A stretch of DNA of 64,000 nt from Candidatus Bathyarchaeia archaeon (GTDB taxonomy: Archaea > Thermoproteota > Bathyarchaeia > Bathyarchaeales > Bathycorpusculaceae): positions 1-64,000 of the forward strand of contig JAVZLM010000008.1 of NCBI GenBank assembly GCA_038883775.1. Reading direction: 5' to 3'. A program made the position numbers and the translations under genes. The stretch's first letter is position 1. Each line of letters opens with the position of its first letter. This document shows, one piece after another, positions 3,215 to 43,945 of the stretch. Under the pieces are notes generated by a model that made no database searches, was not told the DNA's origin, and saw nothing but the letters and a program-made list of their open reading frames with translations.

Positions 3215-3913
3215 TTGCCCCTTGAGGATATCCTAATCTATGCAATAATTGTTTTAGGGGCACTTATTGCATGTTCAATAGTCATTTATGCCATGAGAAA
3301 AAAGGAAAAGAAAAAAGAAAAAGTTGGGGAGGAAGAAAAGTTAAAGGTTGACTTTGGAGGTTTACCATTTAAGATAACAAAAAGCGTATCGCCCGACGAG
3401 GCAGCAAGAGCAAAAGAAGAGCTTAGAATTCTTAGTTTGGAAAGAGAAATTTTAAGCGATGCCATTCGACGCCTTTACGAAGCCCATGCGGAAGGAAAAA
3501 TAACAGAGGAAGAAAGAGAAAGACTTGCCCAAACATACAAAGATAGGATGGTGACAGTGAAAGAAGCCATTTCAAAAGATGAGCATCTTGTGGCTTTACA
3601 TGAGCTCGAAGACATGCAAGAAGACTTGCTAAAACTTTTCAGCGAACGCTTCGACGAGTTAAGCGGAAAAATTGAGGAACTACGCTCAAAAGTTGAGGCT
3701 AAATCACTAAAAGAAATAACCATATCCACGCCAAAGGTGGAAGCAGTCACTAAACCAGAAGAAAAACCTGAGGGGGAAGAAAAAGCTAAGAGAAAGAGAA
3801 AACCAGCCGCCAAGCCAAGTCCAAGAACCGAAGCAGAGAAAAGAATAGAAGAAATAAGAGCTGAAGTAGAAAAAGTTTTGGAAAGGTTGGGACAGATGGA
3901 AATTGAAACCTAA
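3215..3913 (+). CDS. Membrane-anchored coiled-coil hypothetical protein
   Basis: N-terminal TM helix and E/K-rich heptads; overlaps the rpiA start. Confidence 0.7.
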   Translation: MPLEDILIYAIIVLGALIACSIVIYAMRKKEKKKEKVGEEEKLKVDFGGLPFKITKSVSPDEAARAKEELRILSLEREILSDAIRRLYEAHAEGKITEEERERLAQTYKDRMVTVKEAISKDEHLVALHELEDMQEDLLKLFSERFDELSGKIEELRSKVEAKSLKEITISTPKVEAVTKPEEKPEGEEKAKRKRKPAAKPSPRTEAEKRIEEIRAEVEKVLERLGQMEIET

Positions 3914-5254: not shown

Positions 5255-5359
5255 GCCGGGGTAGCCTAGCCTGGAATGGGCGCCAGACTCATAATCTGGA
5301 GAGAAAAGGGACCAAACGCCCTAACCCAGAGGTCGCGGGCTCGAATCCCGCCCCCGGCA
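5255..5359 (+). tRNA. tRNA-Met(CAT), elongator type, with a 30-nt intron (5302-5331) at about position 45/46
   Basis: GCCGGGG...CCCCGGC acceptor and CCAGA-CT-CAT-AA-TCTGG arm. Removing 5302-5331 restores an AGGTC variable loop. Confidence 0.88.
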
Positions 5360-8360: not shown

Positions 8361-8477
8361 TTAGCTTGCCTTTTCCTCTTTACCGTAAAAGGCGTAGAGA
8401 AAGATTAATACTAATGCAATGAAAGTTGCTGTCATGAGAATATATTTGAGCACTTCAAAGTAGGCTCCTATGTCCAT
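8361..8477 (-). CDS. Small single-TM protein (38 aa, not in ORF track)
   Basis: MDIGAYFEVLKYILMTATFIALVLIFLYAFYGKEEKAS; GGAGA Shine-Dalgarno upstream. Confidence 0.55.
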   Translation of the reverse strand: MDIGAYFEVLKYILMTATFIALVLIFLYAFYGKEEKAS

Positions 8478-35693: not shown

Positions 35694-36043
35694 TTCACTA
35701 TTCACTCTCAGAATGAATGCTATAACAATTTTGTATATTAGTTTTATGAGCAAGAAAGTGAATAGAAGATTTTTCCATAAGCTATAAGTGTTTAAATCGC
35801 ATTAAAACTTCATGAGGAGAATGGCGGAATCTTATAAAGGGAGAAAGGAGAGAAGGGAGAAAAACAGTCATTCTACCATTCTCCTCATACATCATTCTTC
35901 ATTATGCATACACATGTTGCTTTTAAACTTTTCTTTGAATTTCGGATTTAACCTCAAATAAGTGTACTTCAAAGGTTTATTTCCAACCGCATTTCGGTGG
36001 TTTAGTAAGCTTAATAACGCTTTTTCAATGACGAAAAACATTT

Positions 36044-36090
36044 TGGTGCGGTCGCCGGGATTTGAACCCGGGTCGTCAGCGTGGCAGGCT
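36044..36090 (+). repeat. att site copy (3' 47 nt of tRNA-Gly including CCA)
   Basis: TGGTGCGGTCGCCGGGATTTGAACCCGGGTCGTCAGCGTGGCAGGCT is identical to 38977-39023. Confidence 0.97.
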
Positions 36091-36894
36091 CATCCTACCA
36101 TTGATTACCATCAAGTTAAGGCAGGGTTCATTGATTATTTAGAGTCGCACAAGTTTAACAGGCGATATATTAAATGCATCTTAAGTTACCTCGATAAATA
36201 TGCAACAATAATCGCTGAACCGTCCGACATTCATAAAATGTTCTCAAAGTTAACTGTTGGGCAGCAGCATAATCTTAATCGTGGCATACGCAACTTACTC
36301 AATTTTATGCAGACGCAAGGTTATCCAGAGGATTACCTTAACTTGTTGCGTAAGAGCATACCGAAAGAGCATATCGGCGTAGACCTTAAAGTGCCCGAGG
36401 AATGCGACATTGTTAAATCACTTAAAATGTTAAATAAAATTGCTCCCAAATATTCTGCGCTCTATAACCTATTGCTGGACAGCGGATTAAGGTTAATTGA
36501 GGCAATCGAGACAATTAACAACTTTAAAAATGCAGAGGGTGTTAACGGATTTTATCGTATAACTGTTGGTATGTTCAGGAACACTAAACAGGCATATTAT
36601 GCATACCTTACGGACACAACTTATAATCAATTACTCAATTTGAGCGAATCAATAAATCCTCTCGCTGCATCGCATTATTACCTTAAATATGGACTTGTCG
36701 CACCCAAGTATCTGCGCAAGTTCGCCTTTGACAAAATGGTTCAACTTGAGATTCCTGAATCAGTTGCCGATTTTATCGAGGGCAGAGTGGCTAAACGCAT
36801 CGGCGCTAAACATTACATGGCGTTAAGGCGTCAGGCGGACAATTGGTATAGTCGGTATGCAGATTACCTTAATAGCCTACGCAGCCGACTTTAA
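36044..36894 (+). CDS. Integrase C-terminal fragment Int(C), SSV1-like tyrosine recombinase
   Basis: SGLRL, KYLRK, FIEGR, KHY catalytic motifs; begins within att (VRSPGFEPGSSAWQA). Confidence 0.92.
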
Positions 36895-37081
36895 CCCCTC
36901 TTTCTTTATTGAGGCTCCATAAAATCGCTAATCGAAAATCTCATCCGTGCAACATATATTAAATCGTAGGATGCGGGCAGAATGTTAATCATACTCTGCA
37001 AGGCGGAAAATTCTTGACGAAAATCAGAGCGCAACTGAGCTAGGCTGTCGATTGTTCTGCTGTGTCATACTCTTGCGGTGG

Positions 37082-37690
37082 CATAAATCTCGTTGATTTC
37101 GTTGAACAGGGTTAAAATCTTGTGTCTTGTGCACAACGATTTTAAAGACTCTCACCGCCTACTCCCCTTTCGGACACCTAGGTTAAAATTCGTGTGCACT
37201 GAACACAAGATTTTAACGCTGATTTAAAATTGCAACGAGATTTATGAGAACGCTCTCTGCATCGGGTAAATCTGCAATGCCTCTGTGGTTCTGAATTATT
37301 TTAAAATCTCATCAGCTCAACATATTGTAAAATTGAAAAATTGTAGCTCGTATAAGAAAGATCACCCTTTAACACCCTCTTATTTTTCGTCACTCAATAA
37401 GATTATTAAAGGTGAAGCGCAATTTTTCCTAGACGGGCTACAATTTTACAATTTTACATATTCAGGTTCCGCATCGGGTAAATCTGCAATGTTTCTACCT
37501 TTCAACCTTGGTAGGATATAGGGCACGTTAAGACGCACATTTTCACAGACCTATTCTCTCAAGGTAGAAAGGTTGAAACAATGTCTCTCCGTTTCATCAG
37601 TTACAGAATACCTATCAGAGTGAGTCGAGATTTACGCTATACCTATCCTCTAACGTGTGAAGCGAAGAGACATTGCAGCAATTGAACCCG
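37082..37690. repeat. Block of four long imperfect inverted repeats with a repeated 21-bp core (37259-37279, 37471-37491; inverted variant 37671-37690)
   Basis: IR arms 37082-37095/37233-37246, 37111-37125/37203-37217, 37326-37351/37433-37458, 37492-37510/37560-37578 and 37579-37588/37666-37675 (the first two pairs are nested in one hairpin). Confidence 0.88.
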
Positions 37691-38465
37691 TAACCGTAGT
37701 CCTGCAATGACCCTGCGTTTCTGCGCCATAATCAAGGAGCGATTTAGGTTTAGGTTTTATCAAGTTCGCTAATTCTTTAACCGGCTCTAATTGATTTAAC
37801 GGTTTAACCATACCATCATAGTTAGGAGTAATTTTCTCACCTTTATGACTAATTTTCCAACCATTCTCTCCTGCTAAAATTGTTTTAACTTTATCGAAGC
37901 CTCATATCTTACATTCGCCAATGTCAGCGTTTTTAACTTGTTCAGGGTTGGTTATCTCTTGTGGCACGTCGCTTCTAGCGTCAAAAATGTACCATCTTTC
38001 TTTGCCTTTATGATAAACTTTAGCAATGCAATTAAACCGTTTTATTTGCACTTGGACGAAATAGTCACTTTCCCTCTTATGTTTTGTATGTATTGGAAAC
38101 ACCGCATAAGTATGAAAAGGTCTCGCAGACCCAATCTCAAAAGTTAACCCATTGTCAAGTTTAAAGTCCCATGGTCGCCTATCTTTATCTTCTTCCCAGT
38201 AATTAGGTTTTCTTTGATTCCATTGATAATCTTTACCAGGTTTTAACTTCGCCTCTTTAAGAAACTGATTAAACGCTAATTCTGCCGCTACCCCTAACAT
38301 ATTCTCTATGGGTCCTTTATGAGGATAACCCCTTTTATCATATTCTTTAATAGCAATTGACACTTGCTCTTCAAGGAAATTCTTGTCGATGTTTTCGATG
38401 ATAATCTCCCCGTTTAATGGATGAGTTGAGTCTTTCACTCTTGCACGCCATATCTTTTGTATCAT
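37650..38465 (-). pseudogene. Putative PD-(D/E)XK nuclease-like protein with an in-frame TGA at 37902-37904
   Basis: LGVAAELAF...PWDF...FEIGS, then SDYFVQV...CKI*GF; the frame stays open for 83 more codons. Confidence 0.6.
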
Positions 38466-38632
38466 TGTTTAGTCGCCTCTATGATTAACCGTTCTCCATC
38501 AATGCGAATCTTAACAGAGTCACCGTCTTTGAATGGGAACGTCGAATCAATCACTAAATCCGCTGGGACATAAATTATGCCCGTTCTGCCCCGCATTGGC
38601 GTTTTGAACGTGCCGATAGCCTCTTTAACCAT
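38462..38632 (-). CDS. AbrB/MazE-type swapped-hairpin DNA-binding protein (56 aa, not in ORF track)
   Basis: MVKEAIGTFKTPMRGRTGIIYVPADLVIDSTFPFKDGDSVKIRIDGERLIIEATKQ; GGTGA SD; ATGA overlap with the nuclease gene. Confidence 0.8.
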   Translation of the reverse strand: MVKEAIGTFKTPMRGRTGIIYVPADLVIDSTFPFKDGDSVKIRIDGERLIIEATKQ

Positions 38633-38753
38633 TTTACCATCACCATTATACGTAAAGGCATAGCGATATTTAAAGATTACGAATATTTTACCCGATACTT
38701 TATTCGATAACTTTAAATATGGCGATGGCTACATTATAATCGAGGATGATAAA

Positions 38754-39023
38754 ATGTTAAGTAAGGTCGAATTAGATTACCTTAAATCGCCAGACGCATT
38801 TAACCCAGATTATCAGCGAATCTTACGTTATCGTATCCGCCATAAAGTTGAACGCCTCAAAGTTATAATGCCATTGTTGGAGGCTAACGGTTTCAGCGTT
38901 ATAAATAATTGTAACAGCGTTACGGAATCTTATAACGGTCAACGGAGCGTAAATCAGACTCTTTTCGATAAAAGAATGGTGCGGTCGCCGGGATTTGAAC
39001 CCGGGTCGTCAGCGTGGCAGGCT
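38754..39023 (+). CDS. Integrase N-terminal fragment Int(N)
   Basis: Ends in the same att-encoded peptide VRSPGFEPGSSAWQA, in the same frame as Int(C). Confidence 0.9.
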
Positions 39024-39054
39024 GATGTCCTAGACCAGGCTAGACTACGACCGC
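38977..39054 (-). tRNA. tRNA-Gly(GCC) with encoded CCA; integration target
   Basis: GCGGTCG...CGACCGC-A-CCA; TCAGC-CT-GCC-AC-GCTGA. Confidence 0.96.
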
Positions 39055-39287
39055 TTTGAGATGATTATAACGTTTTTCTTTATTTCTTTTTCTTAAAAAT
39101 GTAACATTACCAAGCGTAGTACAAGCTTGGTAGAAATCAGCCTTATGTTGACGATTTGAAATTAAAATCCTCTGTTATAGCTAACCAACTCAAGTAAGGA
39201 AGGTTTCATCTATTTTTAACGAAAAAATTAAAAGTGTGACGGATATTTTGCTCTTTCTAAACATCTCATGGAAGTGAAAGCAAACAA

Positions 39288-42160: not shown

Positions 42161-43945
42161 TTAATCTGTGATTTTTTCCAATTCCGTTATGAAATGTTGG
42201 TATTGTTTCATGCCTATTTGCCAAAAGTCTCTGCTGCTGATGTTGAAGCCTGCGATTTTGCCTATTTCTATGGGGGATAGGCTGCTTCCAGCCGATAGGA
42301 TTTGTTTCATTTTCGGTATGAAGGCTTTGCCTTCTTGGAGATACTTTTGGTAGAGGGCGTAAACGAATAGTTGTGCGTAAACATATGGGTAGTTGTAGAA
42401 TCGGAAGTTAGCCATATAATAGTGCGGTGTTATGCTCCATTCTGAAAGCATCTCGTTGAACCATTCCACAGTGTCGCCGTAGGCTTTGTTTCGTGCGGCA
42501 ACCCAATATTTGCATATGGTTTCATGGTTTAGGTATTCGCCTCTTTTGATAACATTGTAAATTTGCTGTTCAAACCATGCGCGGGCGGTTACGCTAAAGA
42601 TTACTCTTCCTGCGCCGTCGAGAATTCTGCAGAGAATCGCTTTCTTTTCCATGTCTGTTTTTGCTTCGCTTAGTAGGAGGTCTGTGAGGAGTAGTTCGCC
42701 AAATATGGAGGCGGTTTCTGCCACAACCATGGGAATCCTCGTGTTCAAAATTGTTTGGTTTCGGAAACAATAGTAGTCGTGGGTTGCGTGGCCGAGTTCG
42801 TGGGCTAATGTGTAAACGTCGTTTAGTCTTCCGTTGAAGCTTTGGAGTACGAAGGCTGATTTTCCATTATACCATCCTGCGCAAAAGGCGCCGTGCTGTT
42901 TGCCAAATCTTGGTGTAGCATCAATGTGGTTTCTTGCGAACATGTCTTTAACAGCGAAAGCATATTCTTCGTCGAAATTGCTGTAAGCTTTAATAACTAA
43001 GTCCTTAGCCTTTTCAAAGTCGAATTTCATTTCTGGCGCATCTGGTAAAGGTGCAATGATGTCGTGGCAGCCAAGCTTGGGTAAGCCCATTATTTTTGCC
43101 TTAAGCCTAAGATAATGCTTGTATAAGCCAACATTTTCTTCAACAACTTTAAGCAAATTGTCTATGGTTTGTTGGTCCACGTCATTGGCTATTAGGCTGG
43201 CGTGCATGGGTGAATCGTATTTTCTCCATTCGCAGACGCTTAGCCAATCATTACAGATATTCCTAAAAGCTGAGGAGAAGATTTCTCCGTCTTTCCCGAC
43301 AAGGCTGAAGACTGATTTGTAGGCTGATTCGCGGGTGGCACGGTCTGGATGAGCGAATAAGCCGTAGGCTTGGCCGAATGGAAGTGTTTTCTTTTCGCCT
43401 TCCACCATAACCTCAAACATTCGTGTGTTTAGCCATTTGGCTTGTAGTTCTTCCCATGCGGAAACTCCGAACTGGTCTTTTTCGATTATTAGTTTTTCTT
43501 CTGTTTCTGAAAGTTGGTGTGGAACTTTGCGCTTTAGTCTTTCTAGGGCATGTTTATAATTTGCCAAGAGTGGGTCTGAGATTAATTCTGGTTTTTCGTA
43601 GACTAGTTTTCCAACTTCAAGCTCGAAGAAGGCTAATAGTTTGCCAAGTTTTGCTTCTAACTTCATGGCCTTGTCATGGAGCGCTTGGGTTTCTGGTAAT
43701 GTCATGTTGGCAGCAAACGCAAGTTCGCAGAATAGCGTGATTTCTCTAAGTTTTGCTTGATACGCTTCAAACTCTTGTAGGCATAGGAGCAGTTCTTTGG
43801 CTGTGAAATCCTTAATTTTTCCTCGGTATTTGTTTGCGAATTTTTCAGCCATATCCGTTAATTCGCTCATGGCTTTCTGCACTGAAGGGTCTGTAATGCT
43901 TGGAAAAATTTCGGACAAGTTCCAAACAACTTCACTTTTCATCAT
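42161..43945 (-). CDS. M3B oligoendopeptidase F
   Basis: GAFC, TLAHELGH, AETASIFGE, FYNYPY. Confidence 0.93.
   Translation of the reverse strand: MMKSEVVWNLSEIFPSITDPSVQKAMSELTDMAEKFANKYRGKIKDFTAKELLLCLQEFEAYQAKLREITLFCELAFAANMTLPETQALHDKAMKLEAKLGKLLAFFELEVGKLVYEKPELISDPLLANYKHALERLKRKVPHQLSETEEKLIIEKDQFGVSAWEELQAKWLNTRMFEVMVEGEKKTLPFGQAYGLFAHPDRATRESAYKSVFSLVGKDGEIFSSAFRNICNDWLSVCEWRKYDSPMHASLIANDVDQQTIDNLLKVVEENVGLYKHYLRLKAKIMGLPKLGCHDIIAPLPDAPEMKFDFEKAKDLVIKAYSNFDEEYAFAVKDMFARNHIDATPRFGKQHGAFCAGWYNGKSAFVLQSFNGRLNDVYTLAHELGHATHDYYCFRNQTILNTRIPMVVAETASIFGELLLTDLLLSEAKTDMEKKAILCRILDGAGRVIFSVTARAWFEQQIYNVIKRGEYLNHETICKYWVAARNKAYGDTVEWFNEMLSEWSITPHYYMANFRFYNYPYVYAQLFVYALYQKYLQEGKAFIPKMKQILSAGSSLSPIEIGKIAGFNISSRDFWQIGMKQYQHFITELEKITD

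Follow-up and report, generated by a model that had tools for sequence, protein, structure and literature searches.

The DNA analysed here is a stretch of 64,000 nucleotides (nt) from a Candidatus Bathyarchaeia archaeon (contig JAVZLM010000008.1 of assembly GCA_038883775.1, positions 1 to 64,000), hereafter called the window, in which an array of long hairpins lies between converging genes for an integrase and a nuclease. The window contains large-subunit (LSU) rRNA and tRNA genes, has a G+C content of about 40%, and the sequencing runs in which its sequence occurs are hot-spring metagenomes. The carrier of the array is a 2,933-bp element that is integrated in the tRNA-Gly(GCC) gene of this hot-spring Bathyarchaeia genome (Table 1). 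Its ends are marked by a direct repeat of 50 nt (49/50 identical, spacing 2933), the attachment (att) sites, and the open reading frames (ORFs) of Int(C) and Int(N) translate this repeat in the same frame and into the same peptide, the true coding part of Int(C) starting inside att. Since att lies inside int and the gene is split by integration, which is the hallmark of the type, the element is an SSV-type integrant. Integrases of this 'suicidal' kind have att inside int, split their gene into Int(N) and Int(C), and target the 3' part of a tRNA gene (PMC7253208), and the window element has the same three traits. The likeness concerns the carrier and not the array; hairpin arrays are not mentioned in the available part of that source (PMC7253208). 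A preliminary description of the locus had placed the array in a mobile element, and the att repeats and split integrase do bound it. The element consists of three genes (int, the nuclease gene and a gene for a 56-aa protein) and roughly 800 bp of non-coding DNA, of which the array, at about 36895-37700, is the only sizeable non-coding region.

All four hairpins of the preliminary description, A to D, were recovered from the sequence and from a listing of inverted repeats at the coordinates claimed for them. Each hairpin was folded as single-stranded DNA and compared with 200 shuffled sequences. Hairpin A folds with -44.5 kcal/mol (z -10.75, 0/200 shuffles), and hairpins B and C also exceed all shuffles (0/200 each), with z-scores on the two strands of -8.06 and -7.97 for B and of -5.99 and -6.35 for C. 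Hairpin D is weak (z -2.15, 7/200, and z -3.29, 1/200). When inverted repeats were counted across all 1,693,884 bp of the genome (arms ungapped, of at least 18 nt and at least 78% complementary, spacer of at most 100 nt), 29 long ones emerged, five of them inside the 2,983-bp stretch of the element; under stricter settings it was three of four. The hairpin cluster is real, lies far above chance and is highly unusual for its genome. The region had been called non-coding, in agreement with stops in all six frames of C-D and with substitutions that lack codon periodicity (10:6:6). Short tandem units, which had been pointed out in the arms of A to C, are readable in the sequence; of these, Tandem Repeats Finder picks up the 8-nt units of B and no others.

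Table 1. Features of the integrated element and its hairpin array. Positions refer to the window unless a contig is named; percentages after arm lengths give complementarity of the arms.
Feature	Position	Strand	Remarks
Int(C)	35962-36894	+	Pfam PF16795 Phage_integr_3, E 4.4e-29, 101.9 bits vs cut-off 27
attL	36044-36093	.	Copy of 3' part of tRNA-Gly; left element boundary
Leader motif	36990-37040	+	CATACTCT ... GGCGGAAAA ...; second copy at 37066
Hairpin A	37075-37253	.	179-nt fold-back; arms 37075-37145/37183-37253, 71 nt, 75%
Core copy 1	37259-37279	+	Exact 21-mer; also in G004 and metagenome contig L014
E-arm remnant	37280-37293	+	Remnant (14 nt) of an E-type 5' arm, truncated at 37293; matches E start in G004 and G195
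Hairpin B	37326-37458	.	133-nt fold-back; arms 37326-37369/37415-37458, 44 nt, 82%
Core copy 2	37471-37491	+	Exact 21-mer; last 5 nt open the stem of C
Hairpin C	37487-37583	+	Arms 37487-37518/37552-37583, 32 nt, 81%; C/D/E family
Hairpin D	37579-37675	+	Arms 37579-37615/37639-37675, 37 nt, 76%; C/D/E family
Nuclease gene, Hjc-like PD-(D/E)xK	37650-38465	-	In-frame TGA at 37902-37904; uninterrupted part 37902-38465
Inverted core, partial copy	37671-37690	-	20-nt arms, 80% complementary to 37272-37291
Partial core + E-arm remnant	37702-37727	+	82% to 37272-37293; 88% to G004 core+E
56-aa AbrB/MazE-like DNA-binding protein (predicted)	38462-38632	-	Upstream of nuclease gene, overlapping; Pfam PF04014, E 2.3e-4, below gathering score
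Fifth inverted repeat	38659-38727	.	27-nt arms, 81%, 15-nt spacer; gap between divergent orf56 and Int(N)
Int(N)	38754-39059	+	N-terminal part of split integrase, extends into tRNA gene; ORF translation
tRNA-Gly(GCC), integration target	38977-39054	-	ARAGORN; Rfam tRNA 67.3 bits; attR = 38977-39026
G004 array	L011 4700-5760	-	Sister array

Absence of the core and hairpins from sister and other mobile elements had been named in advance as part of the outcome that would point to local duplication debris. They are, however, present in three sister arrays, one in a genome of the same genus (G004), one in a genome of another genus (G195) and one on a metagenome contig (L014). The modules occur there in differing number, order and orientation; a comparison of number and order had been proposed in the preliminary description. 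Behind the leader motif, the window array runs A, core, E remnant, B, core, C, D; that of G004 runs X, B, core, E, C, D, A; and that of G195 a weak hairpin, a core-like sequence, E, A. Homologues of hairpin A are found in G004 and G195, and the E hairpin in G004, G195 and L014. In 4/4 arrays, the leader octamer and its G-rich tail precede the hairpins on the same strand.

The comparison of the four arrays clarifies the role of the core. The identity of the 21-mer at 37259 and 37471, 12 nt past hairpins A and B, stands. A search for it gave three matches, against a mean of 0.01 in shuffled sequences of which 0/100 reached three; the third match, at 43038 and with three mismatches, is probably due to chance. 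The 21-mer is also the longest word common to at least three arrays, and it is identical in four copies across three elements despite the diverged hairpins that flank them. The view that a constant core generally belongs to the 3' side of A and B had to be given up, since the sister arrays tie the 21-mer to the 5' side of hairpins of the C/D/E type. Such hairpins are headed by the core in 5/5 copies: in G004 and L014 it stands before E, in the window before C (core 2) and before the 14-nt E remnant (core 1), and G195 has a degenerate form ahead of E. A spacing of 12-13 nt after B recurs in the window and in G004, and a core after A is seen only in the window. On sequence grounds, the 21-mer is therefore the 5' leader of the C/D/E hairpin family and not the tail of A or B. 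Hairpins C and D had furthermore been described as bracketed by core 2 and an inverted core variant; core 2 is indeed in place, but the sequence at the other end is only a partial match. The partial core with E-arm remnant that follows sits within the nuclease frame, in its 3' tail, which is poorly conserved.

Hairpins C, D and E align over their full length and are paralogues of one hairpin family of ~97 nt, with the foot motif CAATG...CATTG. Their alignment (A3) has 28 consensus pairs, 12 of which show changes on both sides, and 86.2% of its cells are paired; for shuffled sequences the figure is 74.7% (0/500), and sliding the partners lowers it to 33-49%. All eight C/D/E hairpins (seven strong, one weak) and all five cores are located on the strand of the integrase gene, antisense to that of the nuclease. 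A covariance model of the family (R1) likewise scores C with 90.3 bits on the plus strand versus 47.6 on the minus strand, and D with 92 versus 53.5 bits. Thus, the stems carry compensatory changes, and the C/D/E hairpins and their core are constant in strand. In C-D, the window and G004 are 88% identical over 192 nt. Since syntenic host DNA of the two genomes is 88-91% identical, C-D is as well conserved as host coding DNA, and this although the flanking integrase and nuclease genes belong to different families. Within the hairpin, C differs from its G004 counterpart at only four positions, two of which form one compensatory pair. As for the fold-backs, the loop of B is inverted in place between the two genomes (40/53 positions match as reverse complement vs 22/53 directly), and hairpin A has near-palindromic arms and loops that are not alignable.

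The sister arrays are located downstream of an integrase of a different family with a characteristic common C-terminus, at a distance of ~0.1 kb in G004 and G195 and of 1.3 kb in L014. The G004 integrase has a weak match to PF00589 below the cut-off, whereas that of the window belongs to PF16795. Modules are thus exchanged between elements with unrelated integrases. On the other flank, G004 and L014 carry a gene family with an invariant D...DxK motif, the profile of which found no match among PDB sequences. Its homology to the window nuclease is unproven (BLASTP E 0.016; hhalign probability 0.4% and 1.4%). The neighbour in G195 is an ORF with a weak homing-endonuclease match, and L014 has an additional HNH-like ORF. 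Within natural populations, too, the module content of the array evidently varies. Contigs from two other hot-spring runs track the window as far as 37293, where the E remnant ends, and are unlike it from there on, and another natural variant joins 36937 to 37040, skipping 36938-37039 (102 nt).

Beyond these sisters, the modules could not be traced. A DNA search with the window array in the genomes of 61 relatives and one with the G004 array in 332 genomes of the family returned only the sister arrays. In the latter search 24 genomes matched at E <= 0.01, and hairpin modules were confined to G000, G004 and G195; 13 of the other short matches were checked, and the contexts viewed were a conserved protein-coding gene or another ORF; the remaining 11 loci have matches of 22-36 nt, one or two per genome. 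The covariance model detected nothing beyond the sister arrays in a sample of 151 genomes of the family and another of 151 genomes of the class. The exact 21-mer has no match in IMG/VR and only sister matches in GTDB species genomes. A 19-mer hit 11 loci in JGI metagenomes, of which ten are chance matches in unrelated and mostly coding contexts and one is the sister array L014, and all 34 loci found in IMG/VR with a degenerate 18-mer are chance matches. BLAST of the array against the INPHARED phage and PLSDB plasmid collections gave no match. In Rfam, nothing reached gathering level within the array, the best sub-threshold match being a plant miRNA model with 31.1 bits (threshold 90.8). In the literature searched, as far as its text was available, hairpin arrays are described neither for Bathyarchaeia nor for integrated elements of the SSV type. 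The hairpin family, together with its invariant 21-nt leader, is new; its carrier is an element of an ordinary kind, and the parts of the array are unnamed in RNA and protein family libraries.

The array can be described as the cis region of an integrative, plasmid-like element, in three parts, namely the leader, the fold-backs A and B, and a run of paralogous ~97-nt hairpins headed by the 21-mer. Its conservation at the coding level, the structural constraint, the confinement to mobile elements and the exchange between elements argue for a cis-acting module. With no more than three genes in the element, any cis functions must lie in its ~800 bp of non-coding DNA. The long spacers of the hairpins make extrusion from the duplex unlikely, which would imply a single-stranded stage. 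We tentatively favour the possibility that the array is a cis-acting origin or strand-priming region made of hairpins; that the acting molecule is DNA and the function replication or priming is what we infer. In this scenario, the hairpins would form on single-stranded DNA, or possibly by extrusion, once the element excises, and would serve as origin or strand-priming signals for replication proteins supplied by the host or a helper. Sequence-specific recognition, or the start, would be at the 21-mer and the invariant base of the stems, and the stems themselves would provide the structural signal. The preference is due to the array being the only possible site, to a related element with iterons and hairpins, to archaeal precedents, and to the lack of a clear excess of G.U pairs in the stems. 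In A3, read on the integrase strand, 16 cells are of the G.U type and nine of the A.C type, so that an RNA-specific pairing bias is not clearly seen.

The related element (G116) is 7 kb long, sits at a tRNA-Glu gene and has the same integrase and nuclease families as the window element. It carries three long hairpins, unrelated to those of the array, ~390 bp from 6.8 copies of a 20-bp iteron (L059, G116:C34; 4497-4632 and 3611-4109). Iterons are a classical feature of replication origins. The same contig has a short palindrome of the AAGGAAGCA type at both 3745-3775 and 8422-8473.

Among archaeal precedents, the Sulfolobus plasmid pRN1 has a 100-nt stem-loop downstream of its replication operon that is the proposed origin; what matters is its structural integrity and not its sequence, and relatives in the pRN family have similar stem-loops (PMC4234260). 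The array resembles this arrangement in that a stem-loop of ~100 nt lies in non-coding DNA just past the main operon of a small archaeal plasmid. It differs in number, pRN1 having one stem-loop together with the orf904 primase-helicase and the arrays four to six hairpins with a 21-nt leader. No prim-pol/helicase operon was found here, the upstream gene being the integrase gene. Plasmids of the pRN type also have integrated forms. The second precedent is the origin of SNJ2, a hairpin downstream of rep in an integrase-containing operon that is restored by excision; this hairpin, which has an inverted repeat upstream of it, is essential, and compensatory stem mutations are tolerated whereas disruptive ones are not (PMC13107129). 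SNJ2, a pleolipovirus with a Rep of the Rep-Arvir type, is likewise a temperate archaeal element with a tyrosine integrase and a hairpin in non-coding DNA past the int operon. Its hairpin, however, measures about 20 nt and is accompanied by a DUF7845 Rep, whereas those of the array span 97-179 nt and Pfam detects no DUF7845. A further parallel is offered by the single-strand origins (sso) of rolling-circle plasmids and of ICEBs1, which are imperfect palindromes of 100-200 nt in non-coding DNA and act as priming signals on one strand. Two different sso, ssoA and ssoU, stand side by side in pMV158, and integrative elements can carry sso. The array shares with them the long imperfect palindromes in non-coding DNA. 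The sso systems are bacterial, however, and need a rolling-circle Rep and a double-strand origin, neither of which was found here. As regards their one-orientation trait, the C/D/E hairpins lie on one strand in 8/8 cases, but B is flipped between genomes.

Several observations weigh against an origin or priming region. Pfam, PHROGs, NCBIfam and PADLOC gave no match to HUH, Rep_trans, DUF7845, prim-pol or MCM proteins in the element or its sisters; for the first three this also covers the ORFs of the G116 element. Neither an excised circle nor a single-stranded form was seen, the sole joint near att having sides of 21 nt. The flipping of B between two genomes would not be tolerable for a strictly strand-specific signal. 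Even where selection is absent, template switching from one arm of an inverted repeat to the other can maintain the complementarity of the arms and flip the spacer, so that some of the covariation seen may be neutral. An RNA would account equally well for the constant strand and the conserved loops in the C/D/E hairpins. Finally, some relatives of the flanking genes lack hairpins. No hairpin lies within 1.5 kb downstream of the closest homologues of the G004-type integrase (65%, 60% and 37% identical), and none near the nuclease homologue of a tRNA-Val-linked remnant (G164 L058, G164:C3, 3692-6475), which also has an Int(N)-like ORF and no Int(C) among its listed ORFs of at least 80 aa. Hairpins are thus not obligatory for either gene family, and we rejected the idea that the array is obligatorily linked to the nuclease family or to one of the integrase families. 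About 80 bp downstream of another G004-type integrase (L116, G299:C1, 1280-1420), one long hairpin was noticed that R1 does not detect (32-nt arms, 78%, 77-nt spacer).

The 2.9-kb locus is a concrete candidate for a minimal origin or, under the alternative discussed below, for a new RNA, and it might seed a vector for Bathyarchaeia. For these abundant, uncultured archaea, the replication and control of plasmids and integrated elements are almost unknown. Irrespective of function, the locus shows cis-modules that move between elements with unrelated integrases.

The main rival reading, conceivable if somewhat doubtful, is that the array acts as RNA, either as a set of structured RNAs or as one long 3' extension on the integrase strand, in which the 21-mer would be a processing or protein-binding site. 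Such RNAs would act as decoys or exert control over the integrase or over the converging gene of the nuclease, to whose 3' end they are antisense. The preliminary description had offered, as its own alternative, a structured RNA array transcribed together with the adjacent nuclease gene; by their orientation the C/D/E hairpins go with the integrase strand. The uniform strand of the eight C/D/E hairpins and five cores, the compensatory stem changes and conserved loop motifs, and the conserved leader motif upstream of the hairpins in all four arrays are in line with this idea, as are the core and E-arm remnants that overlap the 3' tail of the nuclease gene on the opposite strand. RNA folding of the G004 hairpins points the same way for A and D, which are 13-14 kcal/mol more stable on the integrase strand, with a strong asymmetry in G.U pairs (10 vs 1 for A, 6 vs 1 for D). 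In contrast, E and X of G004 and B of the window are more stable on the other strand, B is inverted between genomes, and the bias of G.U over A.C in the family alignment is weak (16 vs 9 cells). Moreover, there is no Rfam family, the plant miRNA matches remaining far below threshold, and no consistent promoter or terminator was found. None of the sequencing runs listed with this sequence is an RNA run; two that are labelled as metatranscriptomic, which we judged to be probably DNA, contain low-depth contigs over parts of the element.

A further reading, restricted to the C/D/E hairpins and their 21-nt leader, we consider unlikely: that they are a new portable cis-module, either a Rep-independent initiation signal on single strands that recruits priming or replication proteins of the host, or a processed structured RNA. 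A strand-fixed, structure-selected unit of ~97 nt would then have been exchanged and multiplied by unrelated integrative elements of hot-spring Bathyarchaeia, and it would be a target of the endonucleases in its neighbourhood, Hjc-like or of the homing type.

The preliminary description had interpreted the array as mimicry of several helpers, with origin, transfer or packaging signals in which each hairpin is helper-specific and the 21-mer is the shared nick site. The element is indeed too small to move or replicate alone and has no recognisable Rep, its modules are unlike in sequence and reshuffled among sisters, and the 21-mer is invariant. Yet C, D and E are paralogues of one hairpin and not mimics of different helpers, the core heads these hairpins instead of every hairpin, and the expected single module per larger helper did not turn up, since no lone module or helper copy was found in any other element searched. 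Databases are thin in viruses and plasmids of Bathyarchaeia, and a helper could be unsampled. The neighbouring ORFs show no match to relaxase, Rep or terminase families. Altogether, we regard mimicry of helpers as improbable. An origin of transfer (oriT) of a mobilisable element was rejected on account of the missing relaxase match and because the 21-mer is absent from IMG/VR and, in GTDB species genomes and JGI metagenomes, restricted to sister arrays.

Equally improbable in our estimate is that the hairpins are enzyme substrates, i.e. folded recombination sites similar to attC or targets of Hjc-like or homing endonucleases that drive the exchange of modules. The position of the array between an integrase and an endonuclease-like gene in 3/4 elements speaks for it, be it the Hjc/I-Ssp6803I-like fold in the window or the D...DxK family in G004 and L014, and the HNH-like ORF of L014 and the weak homing-endonuclease match of G195 can be added. 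Whole units are gained or lost at CAATG boundaries, units abut, and tandem hairpins have one orientation. This reading would, however, require that hairpins with 88% identity be used by two unrelated integrase families. For integration, the window integrase relies on the tRNA att within its own gene, and the edge of the G004 island is on the other side of int. Nor is the insertion or deletion of E precise at a common crossover point, cassette ORFs are missing, and homologues of nuclease and integrase occur without hairpins. Integron attC sites and CALIN arrays share with the array imperfect palindromes of ~60-140 nt with a conserved stem foot and compensated middles, one orientation, a tyrosine recombinase as neighbour, and a content that varies between strains. 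They were dismissed as there is no IntI-type integrase and no cassette ORF, the foot CAATG...CATTG is unlike attC, and the att sites lie elsewhere. For the G004-type integrase, the hairpins were rejected as att site because host synteny with the window genome resumes only at L011 7169, adjoining the integrase start and hence on the other side of int.

Neutral fold-back debris is very improbable; its palindromes would have arisen in a dispensable spacer between convergent genes, through local duplication or by template switching, with homogenisation keeping the arms complementary: the window does carry scars (a truncated E arm, a duplicated 29-nt segment, a duplicated core), a broken nuclease gene, the inverted B spacer and natural variants differing at module borders, but the 21-mer has stayed identical in four copies from three elements next to diverged hairpins, C with its four differences to G004 is more conserved than host coding DNA, and the family occurs in two genera and a metagenome contig beside different genes with its orientation fixed in 8/8 cases. 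Further candidates were discarded. The array is one locus in its genome, and BLAST against that genome finds nothing longer than 22 nt elsewhere, which disposes of host origin mimicry or dispersed copies and also of miniature inverted-repeat (MITE) or fold-back transposons, as these need many dispersed copies and not one locus per genome. A CRISPR array or link was set aside after a crude genome scan found no array; with two core copies 212 nt apart and hairpins between them, the locus is not CRISPR-like, as had been noted before.

The nuclease gene of the element is interrupted by a TGA codon at a position where all four full-length homologues (237-261 aa) have a cysteine (CKI*GFD compared with the conserved ICGFD/ICGYD/IRGFD), and the frame stays open for another 83 codons, to 37650. 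The simplest explanation for this TGA is that the element is decaying and the gene has suffered a nonsense mutation; a selenocysteine or recoding site would look the same, with TGA in place of a Cys codon. The nuclease family, modelled with AlphaFold (pLDDT 85.4), is predicted to have the PD-(D/E)xK core fold of archaeal Holliday-junction resolvases. In VIA-align, the model superimposes on Hje 1ob8 with Z 9.1 (rmsd 2.9, 104 aligned), on I-Ssp6803I with Z 8.6, on SSV1 D212 with Z 8.4 and on three Hjc structures with Z 7.6-7.9; Foldseek E-values are all weak (>= 0.03). Of the catalytic triad, D100 and E110 are invariant, and the residue two past E110 is Gly instead of Lys.

A few further observations concern the surroundings of these elements. 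The fifth inverted repeat of the window element, upstream of the gene for the 56-aa protein, has TATA-like boxes in both arms and from its position is probably a symmetric divergent promoter or operator. The G004 island (L011, G004:C2, 1754-3518) includes genes for a MjaI-type restriction endonuclease and a NucS/PDDEXK-like protein. Beside the tRNA-Val-linked remnant of G164 lie a Thoeris ThsB-like TIR gene and a gene for an 8xMP membrane protein. Elsewhere in the window, Rfam recognises a tRNA of 105 nt at 5255-5359 (53.9 bits) that ARAGORN does not call, and which is probably an intron-containing tRNA gene.

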